Assembly: GCA_964248365.1 (NCBI GenBank)
Contig: CAXTYC010000020.1
Coordinates: 30,490-89,245, forward strand
Reading direction: 5' to 3'
From: an uncultured Chroococcidiopsis sp.
GTDB taxonomy: Bacteria > Cyanobacteriota > Cyanobacteriia > Cyanobacteriales > Chroococcidiopsidaceae
Length of the DNA stretch: 58,756 bases
Positions within the stretch are counted from its first letter, which is position 1. The number at the start of each line of letters is the position of its first letter. Below, piece after piece: positions 12,001-18,000 of the stretch. The position numbers were made by a program.

Positions 12001-15000
12001 AACGTATTAGCTATTGTTTCCTCAACTGGCATCACTGACAATCGATTTCCTGTTCTTGTCACCCAAAGTTCTTGACTAAATTCTTGCCTAAGTGTTGCCA
12101 AAGATATGATATTAGGAAAAGCCCTGACGAATTCCACCTTAACTGTATGCCATCGAGGGGAATCAGGCTTTGATTTGGGGTCATAGTATTTACTATTAGG
12201 ATCGAATTGGGTGGGATCGATAATATTAGAAGTTACCACGCGCATTAATCCCACAATGCCTGGGGGAATGGTATTGGAGTGGTAGAAAAAAGCTCTGTCT
12301 TCTAATTGCATTTGGCGTAGAAAGTTACGCGCTTGATAGTTGCGTACTCCATCCCAAATTGTCGAGCGATCGCGCTCCAAATCTGCAATACTATAAACTC
12401 CAGGTTCAGATTTCATCAACCAATAATTCATCTCAAATCCAACCGCATTTCATTGCTATCTGAAAAGCCCAAACCGGAGTAAACTGGTTTACCTGACGGT
12501 GAAGCGTGGAGGATAACTCGCGTACAACCAAGGGCTTTTAGGTAATCTAACGTCATGCTAGTGAGTTTTTTGGCAATTCCTTGTTTTCGGTAAGGCGGCT
12601 CAACATATACACCCCAAATATACCCATATTTACGATAATTTTCTGTCAAAGCTAGCGGATATAGACCTGCAAATAGTTGACAACTCGCAGAACCGACTAC
12701 TTTATTGTCAACCTCCGCCACAAACGCTTTAAATAACAATTCTTGACGAGCATGATTAATGAACTGGAGTATAATTTCTTGCCAGTCAGATTTAATACAG
12801 TCAGCCGGAACATCGTTGTCTCGCCACAATTGATAAAAATGTTGAGCAATTCGCGAATCTTCCTCCCAGCTTGCCTCTCTCAAATTAATATTTAGTGTCA
12901 TCCGGTTAATTTTAAGATAAATATGATAGTAGTATCGGACGATCGCACCTCGTCATAATGAGAGTGTCACGCAAAGGCGCAAAGGCGCTAAGGTAAACAA
13001 AGGAAATCATCGCTATGTAAGTAGGTGGACATAATTAAATGTAAGATGCGCTCAAGAGTGAAAACTGGGCAGTAAAATTCTTTTCCCTTTTCCTTTTTAG
13101 TTATTGTGCGATCGCTACTAATTCAAGTTCTCACATAATTAGATTTGGATCTAAGCCTACGGATAGGGTTTTCTCACAACCAACGAGTCTAGGCTGGGAG
13201 TGTTCACATTACTAGTGTTGAGGATACACTTATGCCAAGTGGTCATGCTAGTCATAAAGGCTCTTCTAACAAACCCAATATAAACGCTCCTGGTATAATC
13301 GATGATGCTGCGGATACAGGGGTAAACCCAGAAGATCTTCTGCCGGAAAATCTTACTAATACAGAGACACTCAGAACCGACGAATTTGTCGATTATCCTC
13401 CCGCTTACCAACGCCCAGGTGAAGAATCAGAGTCTGGGAAACAACAGGAGTAAGTTAATTATCTAGTGTTGACCGCAGGGGAGCAGGGAAAGCTTCAGGG
13501 GCAGGGGAGCAGGGGGGCAGGGGGGCAGAGGAGAAAATTCAATAATCCAAAAATCTAAAATCCAAAATCTAAAATCCAAAATACCCTAGCCCCTAGCCTC
13601 CAGCCCCTAGCCCCTCGGTAGCACAACAGAAGCGTAAAATATGGCGATTTCGGACTTTTTAGAAAAAATTTCTGACACAATCTGGGAAATCCCTGTTTCT
13701 TATAAAGATGGGATGCGTGTACCCGCTCGGATTTATGGCACAGAAAAGTTAATTGCTGATTTAGACGAAGCCGTCTATGACCAAGTTACCAATGTAGCCA
13801 CACTTCCAGGGATTACAAAATATGCCTTGTGTATGCCTGACGGTCACTTTGGCTATGGGTTTCCCATTGGTGGGGTGGCGGCGATGGATGTGGAACAGGG
13901 AGGCGTGATTTCTCCTGGCGGTATCGGTTTCGATATCAATTGTGGAATGCGCCTGATGGTTACAAACTTAACCTACGATGAAGTCAAACCCCGACTCAAA
14001 AAGATTGTAGACAAACTCTACGAAAGGGTTCCGGCTGGAGTAGGAAGTAGTGGATTTGTCAAGCTATCCAGGCAAGATTTTCGTCAAGTTGTTGAACAAG
14101 GCGCACAGTGGTGCGTCCGTAATGGCTATGGCTGGGAAGAGGATTTAGAACTGATTGAAGAACAGGGATGTATTAAAGGTGCTGATGCTGCCAAGATCAG
14201 TGAGAAGGCTATTGATAGAGGCTTTAATCAAATCGGTACTTTGGGTTCTGGCAATCATTATCTAGAAATTCAAGTTGCTCGACCAGAAAATGTATTCGAT
14301 CAAGAATTAGCCGAAAGTTTAGGAATTACCATGCCAAATCAGGTAGTGGTGATGTTCCACTGCGGTAGTAGGGGATTTGGTCATCAGGTAGCAACCGACT
14401 ATCTGCAAGTCTTCCTGAAAGTGATGGAAAGCAAGTATGGCATCAAGATTTTAGATCGAGAATTAGCCTGTGCGCCTTTTAATTCTCCTGAAGGTCAGGA
14501 TTACTTTGCGGCGATGAAATGCGGCATCAATATGTCTTTTGCCAATCGTCAAGTAATTTTGCATCGTATCCGAGAGGTATTTTCATCAATCTTCAAGCGT
14601 TCAGCGGAAGATATGGGTATGCATATGGTTTACGATGTAGCGCATAATACAGCAAAGCTAGAGCGCCATACAGTTGATGGTCAAGAGCGAAGTCTTCTTG
14701 TTCATCGTAAAGGTGCAACGAGGGCTTTTGCTCCAGGTATGGCGGATCTACCAGATCGTTACAAGGAGACTGGACAACCAATTATCATTGGCGGCAGTAT
14801 GGAAACCGGATCTTATCTGCTAGTTGGTGTACCTGGTGGCGATCAAACTTTCTTCAGCACAGCGCATGGTAGCGGACGCACAATGAGCCGAGCGAAGGCT
14901 CGTAAAATCTATAGCGGCGAAAAACTCCAAAAGGACATGGAAAGTCGAGGTATTTATGTCCGTAGTACCTCATGGTCAGGACTTGCAGAAGAAGCAGGCG

Positions 15001-18000
15001 GAGCATACAAAAATATCGATGATGTAATTGAAGCGGCTGAATTAGCCGGAATTAGTAAACGAGTAGTGCGACTTACTCCAATTGGGAACATAAAGGGATA
15101 GTTTATTCTCAGAAGTTGGAGCAATTAAGACAATAGGCAGATACATTAATTGCCTAGTGAATAGCAAGTAGGAATTTATGGAGGTGCTGCGTGAAATCCA
15201 AAGTATCTTTCTGGCTGATTCCTTCAGAAGATGACAAAACATTTTTCCAGAAAATTATAGACAATCTTGCTCAAGAATATAATGCTCCAACTTTTACCCC
15301 TCATGTAACTATATACTCAGGCGAATACGAACCTGATGAATCTCCCGCTGAAATTATAGAAAAAGCGGTACACTCAGTTCAAAGCTTTAGTTTAAAAATT
15401 GATAAGATTCTATATACAGACTCTTTTACTAAAACTTTATTCGTACAATTTCAATCAAATCCAATTCTTAGTAATATATCAGAAATAATACAACGCAGTT
15501 CAAAAAGCCCATCTGAATTTGCACTTAATCCCCATTTAAGTTTGATTTATCAATATCTAAACGAGGAAATAAAGAAAAATATAATTACTTCGATTAAACT
15601 ACCAAAATCCGAAGTTGTTTTTGATGAAGTAAGAGCTATATCGACTCCAGAGAAAGTACAAAAACGAGAGGATGTAGAAAACTGGGAAGTAATTTGTACA
15701 AGGAAACTTCAATAGAGAACAAATAAGTTATGGTAGTACGCACACCACTAACAGTAATCACGGGACCGCTGGGAAGTGGCAAAACAACGCTGTTGCGACA
15801 CATCCTCGATACTTTTCCCAGAAAAATCGCCATTCTAATGAATGAATTTGGTGAGATTGCGATCGACTCCAAAATTATTGGGGGTAAAAATGTTCAAATG
15901 GCTGATCTTGGTGGTGGTTGTGTTTGCTGTTCCCTGCTGGGCGAGTTTGAAGCCGCTGTCAATGAAATTATTGATACTGTTGATCCAGACAATATTGTAG
16001 TAGAAACAACCGGAGTCGCTGAACCGGATGCCCTTGTATTTGATATTCAAGAGAGTTTAACTATAGTGCGTCTAGATGGAGTTGTTACCCTTGTCGATGC
16101 GGATGCTATGGTGAAATATCCCTCGCTAGGTCATACAACTCGGATGCAAATCGAAGCAGCAGATACTATCTTGCTCAATAAAGTTGATTTAGTTTCCGAC
16201 AGCGATTTAATGGCGATAGAAGAGAAATTGCGAAGTCTCAATCAAGTAGCAACAATTATTCGCACTCAAAGAGGCAAAGTAGATCCACAATTGCTGTTTG
16301 GAATCGGTAGAGAACGAGTACAAGCACCTCCCGATCACGTTCATCACCCCGAATTTGAATCATTCAGCTATAAAACAAATGCTAGTTGCGATCGCCACTG
16401 TTTTGAAGAATTCGCCGACAGCCTTACAACAAATGTATATCGAGCAAAAGGTTTTATCCAATTTCAGTCAGGAACTTATCTATTTAATTTCGTAGCCGGA
16501 CGCTGGGAACTAGAACCATTTGAACAAGAGGGAACTGAACTAGTTTTTATCGGCAAACAGGTAAATACACACAAAGCAGAAATTATTGACCGCTTAAAGT
16601 CATGTGAGCAATAGAATCAATTATCAATTATTAATCTAAAATCTAAAATCTAAAATCTAAAATTGTATTATGCCTTATGAATTTCTAGAAGATATTGCTA
16701 CTGCTGACATTGCCTTTCGAGCTTGGGGAAAGGATTTACCAGAACTTTTCCAAGCGGCTGGCGACGCTACAATCAATGTCATGATCGAAGATTTGGACAC
16801 AATAGAATTTAAAGAGCAGCGAGGCTTCAGCTTAGAAAATGATGCTTTAGATATGTTGCTGTTCAATTTTCTTCAGGAATTTATTTACTACAAGGACAGT
16901 GAACAACTCCTTCTACGGGCTTCTCAGGTGCAGGTGGAAAAGAAAAATAGCCAGCACGAACTAACCGCATTTACTCAAGGAGAAAAACTCGATCCTCATC
17001 GTCACCAGCAACGGGTAGATGTTAAAGCTGTAACTTTACACCGCTTCGAGCTAGAAAAAACTGATGACGGCTGGACAGCTATGGTAATCCTTGATATTTA
17101 GCGGGTTTTTTCTCCACTCGTTACCAGGCTCAGCCTGGTAACAAGGTATTTTCATATCAGTTATTAGTTAATTTGTCAAGTTTTTACTACATCTGTCCAC
17201 TAAAAATTGGCTTAACCTGGTGTTCAATTTTATCGCTTGTATCTTCGGCGATCGTTAGATATTCAGGTTTGCAGCGCTTGATTTTAACAACAATTCCGAT
17301 CGCTCCTTCTTGCTCCAAGTCTTCTACATACCCAGATGACGCAGCATCGGCTTCCTTCGAGCTAAGAAATGGACCAAAGTAGTAAGTACAGCGGGGATTG
17401 TGCGTTACAATCTCTACCCACCAGGCACAGCCGAAGCTGTATAAAAGGTTAGTCAAGTTTTCTTTGATATAGTTCCAAAATGTCTGCATGGTTTTATTTC
17501 CTGTTGAGTGATGTGGTGTGAGGTACTATTGGTCAATAAGTGCTGTAGTAATATTTCACACTTTGTTATACTCTGTAACTCTTATTTTTTCAAATTATCT
17601 ATTTGTCATTTATCTAAATGCAGTGTATTTTGCCACTTTTGACGAAAAATCTCATAAAGAGCCATTCCTGCTGCTACTGAGGCATTCAGGCTAGGAGTTT
17701 TTCCCAGTAGCGGAATCGACACCAAAACATCGCAGCAGCGTTGTGTCAACAAACTTAGACCTTCGCCTTCAGAGCCAATGACTAAAACAATCGAACCCTT
17801 CAATTGCACTGTATGCAGTGGTTGACTAGCCGTTGCAGCCGTACCATAAATCCAAAAGCCAGCTGCTTTCAATTCTTCCAGAGCGCGGCTGAGATTTACC
17901 ACCCTAGCGACCGGAAAATTTTCTAAAGCTCCCGCTGCGACTTTCATCACACTTGAAGTAATCCCAACTGCCCTTCTTTGAGGTATTACCAATCCCTGAG

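Follow-up and report, generated by a model that had tools for sequence, protein, structure and literature searches.

In an uncultured Chroococcidiopsis sp., the gene for the RNA ligase RtcB and that for archease, which activates it, stand on either side of a gene for a COG0523 (G3E) GTPase that is very likely a dedicated functional partner of the RtcB-archease pair. We analyzed a stretch of 58,756 nt from this organism (here, the window) together with 401 genomes of its order, G000 included, and 14 loci of the same COG0523 subfamily from outside the order (Cyanobacteriota, Verrucomicrobiota, Latescibacterota, DPANN archaea, and metagenomes). On the best explanation, the protein, from a COG0523 subfamily of its own, works as a GTP-dependent G3E metallochaperone for the adjacent RtcB-archease ligase alone, an account whose chances we consider evenly balanced.

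Results

The genome-wide survey's note described four same-strand genes, and the ORFs lie exactly where it placed them, all on the + strand. They encode an archaeal/eukaryal-like, "type A" RtcB of 486 aa (13641..15101; PF01139, E 8e-169), a plant-type CPDase, a 2H phosphoesterase of 174 aa with a GTG start (15191..15715; PF07823, 42.3 bits versus a cut-off of 21), the 294-aa COG0523 GTPase of the RtcB/archease-linked subfamily (15730..16614; cobW and CobW_C), and archease, an activator of RtcB guanylylation, with 143 aa (16670..17101; PF01951, E 6e-40). The intergenic gaps are 89, 14, and 55 nt in this order. At 17120..17142 on the + strand, a 10-pair stem with six G-C pairs is followed by a T-run; by consensus match only, this hairpin resembles a terminator ending the cluster. 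Strand, gaps, and hairpin together suggest that RtcB-CPDase-COG0523-archease is a putative operon.

Family assignment of the 294-aa protein is clear, with 156 bits to cobW (cut-off 20.7) and 56.9 bits to CobW_C (cut-off 22). We read in its sequence the Walker A motif G12-PLGSGKT-19, ETTG at 92-95, NKVD at 150-153, the metal motif C64-V-C66-C67, and RAKG at 238-241, a form of the RxKG arginine-finger motif of the C-terminal domain defined in the available part of the Rocchio et al. 2026 preprint. The motifs that the survey had reported as intact (Walker A GPLGSGKT, CVCC, and both HxT/S motifs of the CPDase) are thus all present. Across 37 subfamily sequences, CxCC is invariant (37/37), as are G12, G15, G17, K18, T19, E92, K151, D153, R238, and G241, and K240 is kept in at least 90%. 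The protein is a COG0523/G3E P-loop GTPase predicted to hydrolyze GTP and bind metal. It falls short of the cut-offs of the named NCBIfam equivalogs: CobW (127.1 versus 332.1 bits), ZigA (105 versus 600), and YjiA-type PRK11537 (130.2 versus 361).

The RtcB/archease-linked proteins form a single, sharply separated clade (support 100/99; 12 of the 81 tree rows), with at least 47% identity within the subfamily and at most 36% to other COG0523 paralogues, and the other paralogues of the same genome place elsewhere on the tree. The window protein lies inside this clade, and its gene is accompanied by those of RtcB and archease. Around the linked genes we saw no cobalamin or zinc-uptake context. 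Nor does any metal transporter or metal regulator recur near the module, which counts against a metal role.

Archease is present in 78 of the 401 genomes of the order and an intact linked COG0523 gene in 54. Every one of these 54 genomes also has a type A RtcB (79 to 100% identity) and the 423-nt type of archease. Archease lies directly downstream of COG0523 in 50/54 (gap of 203 nt or less, typically 10 to 13 nt), in line with the earlier claim that in at least 60% of the order's genomes with archease the gene adjoins COG0523. On the upstream side, 51/54 have RtcB no more than 1.4 kb away: the distance does not exceed 139 nt in 37 genomes and is 631 to 1,354 nt in 14. Where the module decays, it decays jointly: G262 retains only fragments of RtcB, COG0523, and archease, G236 has a COG0523 pseudogene and neither archease nor type A RtcB, and G337 has a truncated RtcB alone. 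Outside the order, archease is kept at 13/14 loci and RtcB at 11/14, and two further members have RtcB elsewhere in the genome. Among the loci of other COG0523 paralogues, RtcB or archease was found at 0/107 (68 + 39). In single genomes the module contains an additional gene, for a beta-carbonic anhydrase (L114) or an N-formylglutamate amidohydrolase (L117), both zinc-type enzymes. A Kerfeldbacteria assembly (G681; about 1 Mb, lacking a stated completeness) has a subfamily member with neither RtcB nor archease found.

At least 10 distinct full-length proteins are natural fusions of COG0523 and archease (P0123 and P0391-P0399). A quick tree requires four changes of state to explain them, of which three or more are forced. 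COG0523 is always joined at the N-terminus of archease; the C-terminal carboxylate of archease, which binds metal in the human complex as far as it is described in the material available, therefore stays free. None of the ten joins COG0523 to RtcB, and the sole RtcB-cobW chimera (P0224) reads as frameshifted. From the complete co-occurrence, the single clade, the outside loci, the empty paralogue controls, and the fusions, we therefore consider the partnership very likely.

The ligase and its activator retain their conserved active-site residues. Over residues 7-486, RtcB aligns with the P. horikoshii enzyme (1uc2, E 3.7e-162). In a set of 19 sequences D98, C101, H206, H240, H335, and H409 never vary, as expected of the metal ligands and the guanylylated histidine. 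They align to D95, C98, H203, H234, H329, and H404 of the P. horikoshii enzyme. The survey had counted D67/H69 among the predicted metal ligands; those named in the accessible description of the solved human complex correspond instead to D98, C101, H206, H240, and H335. In archease, the predicted metal- and phosphate-binding residues D13, K119, and D142 are invariant and match human D51, K156, and D178/I179 by position, again as far as that description goes, and the C-terminus is LDI/V (LDI in the window protein). Among the 66 positions separating type A from type B RtcB, we saw no obvious extra ligand, a point against the metallochaperone reading.

The CPDase gene is inserted variably and does not belong to the module core; we regard it as accessory or as a passenger. 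The survey's label "plant-type" is borne out by the fold: the best PDB match of its AF2 model (pLDDT 84) is the A. thaliana CPDase 1jh6_A (E 1e-11, TM 0.82, 24% identity), with a lower TM of 0.56 to 0.60 to LigT. H38-V-T40 and H115-L-S117 are invariant in 13/13 homologues, which places the protein among the 2H/CPDase enzymes. It shares the 2H fold and two HxT/S motifs with the A. thaliana enzyme (1jh6, 1fsi), and unlike that enzyme it is bacterial, has 174 aa, and is encoded in an RtcB cluster. A CPDase occurs in 21/401 genomes of the order and in 4/27 of the family, where none had been reported. It lies beside RtcB in only two (G000 and G476), and the RtcB/COG0523 junction in other genomes is occupied by unrelated genes. 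Only 4/54 module genomes have any CPDase, and 17/21 CPDase genomes, four congeners among them, lack the module. Conversely, a genome of the same genus (G432) has RtcB and COG0523 separated by 60 nt with no CPDase. These counts do not support the CPDase as a regular extra end-healing step. It is unlikely that the CPDase, as the survey proposed, is a functional fourth component that serves the ligase by processing nucleotides or 2',3'-cyclic phosphate ends, even with its position on the same strand within the cluster, a chemistry that addresses the same type of RNA end, and close homologues 38 nt after RtcB in a genome of a different family (G476; 69% identical) and 6.5 kb from the module in G465 (68% identical). 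Besides its distribution, its expected product stands against that role. Plant CPDase and LigT-type 2H enzymes produce 2'-phosphates, which RtcB is not known to join; therefore the CPDase would oppose ligation instead of aiding it. In plants, CPDase acts in the alternative route of tRNA ligation, which uses 2'-phosphates.

Discussion

The survey had proposed that the COG0523 protein is the metal insertase of RtcB. What holds of this proposal is the dedicated companionship with RtcB/archease, now on firmer ground than in the survey and carried by strict three-way co-occurrence, a single clade, spread across phyla and domains, fusions, and joint decay. Its RtcB-insertase part is weakened by the link being tightest to archease and by a sister module (type B) in 18 genomes of the order, in which an RtcB 46 to 49% identical and a 393-nt archease occur without such a COG0523 gene. 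A metagenome contig (L131), with archease directly after RtcB and no gene between them, also speaks against a need for a metal chaperone. Given the genomic context and motifs, we infer that the protein's activity is metal delivery or exchange at the active site, with the case for and against about equal. Its binding to the ligase, the transfer of metal, the direction of that transfer (insertion versus removal of an inhibitory metal), and the metal itself are likewise inferred.

In the mechanism that we propose, the CxCC site would hold a divalent metal in the GTP state, and the metal-loaded protein would dock on archease and/or RtcB. Its own C-terminal RxKG arginine finger would trigger GTP hydrolysis, by which metal would be released or exchanged at a composite ligase active site consisting of RtcB sites A and B (D98, C101, H206, H240, and H335) and the archease carboxylates (D13, D142, and the terminal carboxylate). 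RtcB would then be guanylylated and could seal 3'-P or 2',3'-cyclic-P ends to 5'-OH ends. In the accessible accounts, human and archaeal RtcB are active in vitro with Mn2+ and archease alone; thus catalysis itself does not require a chaperone. By established coordination chemistry, the thiolates of CxCC fit Zn, Co, Ni, and Fe better than Mn, while Zn and Co inhibit RTCB; this, too, counts against the proposal. A more specific reading, which we regard as improbable, is that the GTPase together with archease reloads RtcB with metal at the expense of GTP and so resets it after each catalytic cycle. A labile site-B or site-C metal lost on guanylylation would be resupplied or shuttled, and the metal choice imposed in the cell would differ from the Mn2+ used in vitro.

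The direct partner may instead be archease, with the GTPase acting as a nucleotide-driven switch or loader that charges the archease carboxylate metal site or times archease binding to and release from RtcB, whose Cys/His sites it would not metallate. The short gap to archease and the fact that all ten fusions involve archease and none RtcB favor this reading, as does G367, in which COG0523 and archease stay side by side and RtcB is 1.66 Mb away. Archease adds a third metal site, and the authors who describe the human complex leave open whether archease arrives pre-loaded. We nonetheless consider this reading unlikely, since in G310 it is RtcB and COG0523 that stay together (6-nt gap) with archease 18.6 kb away, since an all-oxygen site (Asp and carboxylate) is an unlikely acceptor from CxCC thiolates, and since type B archease needs no such partner. 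Somewhat less likely still is metal proofreading, in which CxCC would strip inhibitory, tightly bound Zn, Co, or Cu from the RtcB Cys/His site, or shield the oxidation-prone cysteine, so that Mn can bind. The accessible RTCB literature reports that equimolar Zn2+ abolishes and Co2+ diminishes guanylylation, and that the active-site cysteine is prone to metal-induced oxidative inactivation, against which metazoa need the protector PYROXD1; the invariant CxCC of the subfamily would also suit this role. Against it, the available part of the COG0523 section of a 2024 review (Chem Rev) names no G3E protein acting as a remover, and DPANN archaea from groundwater, for which oxidative stress is no obvious issue, carry the module as well. 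An ordinary zinc-homeostasis paralogue or passenger with no specific tie to RtcB is near refuted. The zinc-type enzymes in L114 and L117 and the isolated member in G681 would fit it, but it is contradicted by the same evidence that carries the partnership (54/54 co-occurrence, one clade, joint decay, fusions that recur, a spread over phyla and domains, and 0/107 among paralogues) and by a score far below the ZigA equivalog cut-off.

The proposed metallochaperone has partial precedents. Nha3, the activator of Fe-type nitrile hydratase, likewise belongs to a COG0523 subfamily clustered with the genes of one metalloenzyme, and its GTPase activity is required for active nitrile hydratase, according to the accessible parts of Haas 2009 and Chem Rev 2024. 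In contrast to Nha3, the client proposed here is an RNA ligase with an activator protein and not a hydratase subunit, and fusions of the chaperone to the cofactor protein of its client recur. CobW, ZigA, ZagA, YjiA, and ZNG1 share the two-domain architecture, Walker A, CxCC, NKxD, and C-terminal RxKG; unlike CobW, ZigA, and YjiA, the window protein stays under the equivalog cut-offs, and its clade is separate from the genome's other paralogues. RtcB and archease are also encoded together in the "tRNA splicing operon" of Desai et al. (2014, 2015), where archease activates guanylylation and enables multiple turnover. These descriptions, in the parts available, include no GTPase (the word occurs 0 times in the 2015 paper), whereas here a G3E GTPase stands between both genes as a third constant member. 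PYROXD1 is similar in being an accessory protein of RTCB, whose active site, dependent on metal and cysteine, it keeps functional, but as a flavin oxidoreductase it shares neither fold nor chemistry with G3E GTPases.

Our literature search, of partial coverage, found no paper tying COG0523 to RtcB or archease. That few clients of COG0523 metallochaperones are established is an acknowledged gap: the available part of the 2024 review names only the clients of CobW and Nha3 for bacterial COG0523 proteins, and that of the 2026 preprint (Rocchio et al.) states that ZigA and MigC still await a bona fide client. For this poorly understood family of chaperones, our results suggest a new client, RtcB-archease: comparative genomics indicates one specific, purifiable pair, and the natural fusion proteins are directly usable for structural work. 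The finding also bears on the catalytic metals of RtcB, whose identity and number are called debated in the accessible literature, and on archease pre-loading; with the three proteins taken from culturable cyanobacteria, these questions would become testable. If the reloading reading were true, no nucleic-acid enzyme before RtcB would have had a G3E metallochaperone dedicated to it, and the native metal of RtcB would be actively selected.

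The putative RtcB operon in the window

The genome-wide survey's note had described four plus-strand open reading frames as an operon, and this four-gene observation is confirmed. ORF reading gave the same coordinates, and all four products were assigned to their Pfam families above cut-off: RtcB (13641 to 15101), a 174-aa 2H protein or CPDase (15191 to 15715), a 294-aa COG0523 GTPase (15730 to 16614), and archease (16670 to 17101). The intergenic gaps are 89, 14, and 55 nt, in that order, and a terminator-like hairpin lies 3' of archease (17120 to 17142). The motifs quoted in the note were found in the window protein sequences. 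The GTPase falls below the NCBIfam cut-offs for the CobW, ZigA, and YjiA-type equivalogs, and a PADLOC scan gave only a P-loop match.

Several other features surround the operon. A 73-aa acidic ORF (13232 to 13453, plus strand) lies 187 nt 5' of RtcB, and none of the loci compared contains a match to it; the leader before RtcB (13470 to 13620) is full of short G-rich, A-rich, and CCCTAG-type repeats. Convergent with archease is a DUF1816 gene (17187 to 17489, minus strand); a 77% identical copy occupies the equivalent place in the same-genus genome G432 (locus L081), and a 49% paralogue lies on contig C18. Unrelated to the operon, a group II catalytic intron match (Rfam RF00029) occurs at 23996 to 24074 on the plus strand, scoring 56.9 bits (gathering score 40).

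A distinct COG0523 subfamily

Without a profile, an exhaustive search with the window GTPase returned 582 representatives (E 1e-30 or lower), with relatives of approximately 290 to 305 aa at 41 to 63% identity. We also scanned species-representative genomes for COG0523, a sample comprising at least 79 loci. Among the 79 loci listed, 11 encode a protein 47 to 72% identical to the window GTPase; the other 68 reach at most 45%, and at most 36% for near-full-length matches. When 81 COG0523 proteins were placed in a maximum-likelihood tree, the window GTPase and those eleven formed one clade (support 100/99), which we call the subfamily. The window genome has five cobW-family loci, and its own paralogues on contigs C2 and C12 fall outside the clade. 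All eleven loci were labelled as linked to RtcB or archease, though one of them (L006) shows no such neighbour. At the 68 loci with other COG0523 paralogues, and at 39 more such loci, we found neither RtcB nor archease, although some of these 107 loci are on short contigs.

The searches also returned proteins of approximately 600 to 650 aa with a C-terminal COG0523 module behind an N-terminal region of approximately 300 aa without a Pfam match (P0183, P0191, P0210, P0226, P0227, P0244, P0248, P0261, P0266, and P0271 to P0293), some of them named from Syntrophobacterales and Syntrophorhabdaceae.

Co-occurrence with RtcB and archease in Cyanobacteriales

We ran four queries against one set of 401 genomes of the order. 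Archease was detected in 78 of them and an intact subfamily GTPase in 54, at 63 to 100% identity; beyond these 54 there were one GTPase pseudogene (genome G236) and one other paralogue at 40% identity (G508). RtcB occurs in three types: type A, 79 to 100% identical to the window RtcB (54 intact); type B, at 46 to 49% identity; and the widespread type C, of approximately 400 aa, at 33 to 36%. Type A RtcB and an archease of the 423-nt type are present in every one of the 54 GTPase genomes, although these genomes are kin and such counts are not independent events. Counted per genus, the GTPase is present in 28/143 and archease in 38/143. Of the 24 genomes that have archease but not the GTPase, 18 encode type B RtcB next to an archease of 393 nt, and the rest hold fragments only. 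Comparison of type A and type B RtcB sequences revealed no obvious extra ligand.

Archease lies directly 3' of the GTPase in 50/54 genomes, at a distance of up to 203 nt and usually 10 to 13 nt, and RtcB lies directly 5' in 37/54, within 139 nt. An insert of 631 to 1,354 nt parts RtcB from the GTPase in 14 genomes, the window's among these; RtcB is on another contig in two and 1.66 Mb away in one. Decay, too, affects the module as a whole, as seen in G236, G262, and G337.

In one locus (L125, G346:C83), two archease copies (548 to 994 and 3834 to 4265) flank a 575-aa PMT-like glycosyltransferase 3' of COG0523, and in G208, G231, and G248 the module has archease fragments close by. The window genome encodes one more RtcB (393 aa, G000:C64:7476-8654; L187:4977-6155, minus strand), which is short, E. 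coli-like, and of a type widespread in the order. Next to it lie genes for a Fis-type HTH protein, a WD40 protein, and DUF1822, but neither archease nor COG0523.

The module outside the order

Among the 11 subfamily loci listed, archease is present at 10 and RtcB at 8, with two loci (L004 and L011) running into contig ends. The sources include one leptolyngbyacean cyanobacterium, three Verrucomicrobiota, one Latescibacterota, and five DPANN archaea. In the L005 genome, RtcB shares the contig at a distance of approximately 11 kb, and in the L011 genome an intein-bearing RtcB lies on another contig. The assembled part of the L006 genome (G681, a Kerfeldbacteria assembly of approximately 1 Mb) contains neither archease nor RtcB. 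Its subfamily protein has its closest counterpart in an Aenigmatarchaeota genome sharing the 'NC_groundwater' isolate prefix; mis-binning, incompleteness, and a true orphan are all possible explanations.

Three further loci in which RtcB, COG0523, and archease are contiguous in that order (L128 to L130) came from a metagenome scan, as did one short contig (L131) in which archease directly follows RtcB without COG0523 between them. Only two subfamily members were present in a phylum-wide sample of 201 genomes, and only the centre genome had one in a Verrucomicrobiota sample of 141. The module is sparse in both samples, and they provide no independent replicate. The neighbours of archaeal and other loci held nothing recurrent that would serve as a clue to the metal.

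The module RtcB of DPANN archaea has an intein-sized insertion at residue 100/101, adjoining the metal-ligand cysteine (a 969-aa ORF at L009:2406-5312, a 909-aa open frame in G682, contig C66, and a LAGLIDADG ORF at L010:64-879). In Myxacorys, RtcA (RNA 3'-phosphate cyclase; L001:7387-8445, plus strand) follows the module, giving the order RtcB-COG0523-archease-RtcA.

COG0523-archease fusions

COG0523 and archease are fused in frame in P0123 (437 aa) and in P0391 (439 aa) of genome G462. A search with P0391 returned eight more 90%-identity clusters of full-length fusions (436 to 452 aa) from several sources, which carry all three Pfam domains. The fused state requires four changes on a quick tree, of which at least three are forced by well-supported branches. 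The join is always at the archease N-terminus, leaving the C-terminal ...LD(I/V) free; the terminal carboxylate of archease serves as a metal ligand in the human complex. An AF2 model of P0391, built on an alignment (A6) in which MAFFT misplaced a few N-terminal archease residues, has well-folded individual domains and a pTM of 0.54, at which their packing is not readable with confidence.

Among longer proteins (516 to 2,000 aa), we found no RtcB-COG0523 fusion. One apparent chimera, P0224, was rejected as an RtcB-cobW fusion on reading as frameshifted.

The CPDase and other inserts

The window CPDase has a plant-CPDase-like fold (model pLDDT 84), with 1jh6_A as best match at TM 0.82 versus 0.56 to 0.60 for LigT. 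The note had called it a rare extra end-healing step, a role that its distribution does not support. The family occurs in 21 of the 401 genomes and lies beside RtcB in only two (G000 and G476); in G465 it is 6.5 kb from the module. G432, a genome of the same genus, has the module but lacks the CPDase, and four congeners have the CPDase but lack the module. In other cyanobacteria, the RtcB/COG0523 gap holds beta-carbonic anhydrase, Uma2 nucleases, sulfotransferases, or unknown ORFs, and in one genome an N-formylglutamate amidohydrolase lies between the GTPase and archease. Being one insert among several, and patchily distributed, the CPDase is read as an accessory or passenger gene. Two inserts belong to metalloenzyme families, in single genomes each (beta-carbonic anhydrase, L114:2277-3047; N-formylglutamate amidohydrolase, L117:4302-5090); they may reflect chance or hint at a wider clientele.

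Function of the GTPase

Full-text searches of the accessible literature, in which some matches were judged by title or the start of the abstract, found no paper linking COG0523, CobW, or G3E proteins, or metallochaperones, with RtcB or archease. The terms RtcB, archease, and ligase do not appear in Haas 2009, and the accessible portion of Chem Rev 2024 gives COG0523 clients only for CobW and Nha3. As far as searched, the GTPase-RtcB-archease partnership is unreported.

Two observations argue against a need for a chaperone: type B modules do without such a GTPase, and archaeal and human RtcB work in vitro without one. Structure prediction does not decide the matter. With COG0523 as partner of RtcB and archease, each with its own alignment (A2, A4, and A3), the complex scored 0.00 in both runs, for which controls were not folded, and this neither repeats nor contradicts the two-chain run in the note. 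Delivery of Mn from a thiolate site would be unusual. For RTCB, published work describes metal sites A and B, with archease contributing site C, and inhibition by Zn2+ and Co2+; its authors call open the identity of the metal and whether archease arrives pre-loaded.

The note's proposal therefore divides in two. The tie of this COG0523 protein to RtcB and archease is strongly supported by its co-occurrence in all GTPase genomes of the order, its single clade, and its fusions. That the GTPase is the metal insertase of RtcB is a plausible hypothesis. Every GTPase and metal motif is invariant across the subfamily, including the RxKG arginine finger, and the simplest reading is that the protein is a functional G3E metallochaperone; such a chaperone could insert, exchange, or clear metal at the composite RtcB-archease site, a role that would fit the partnership.
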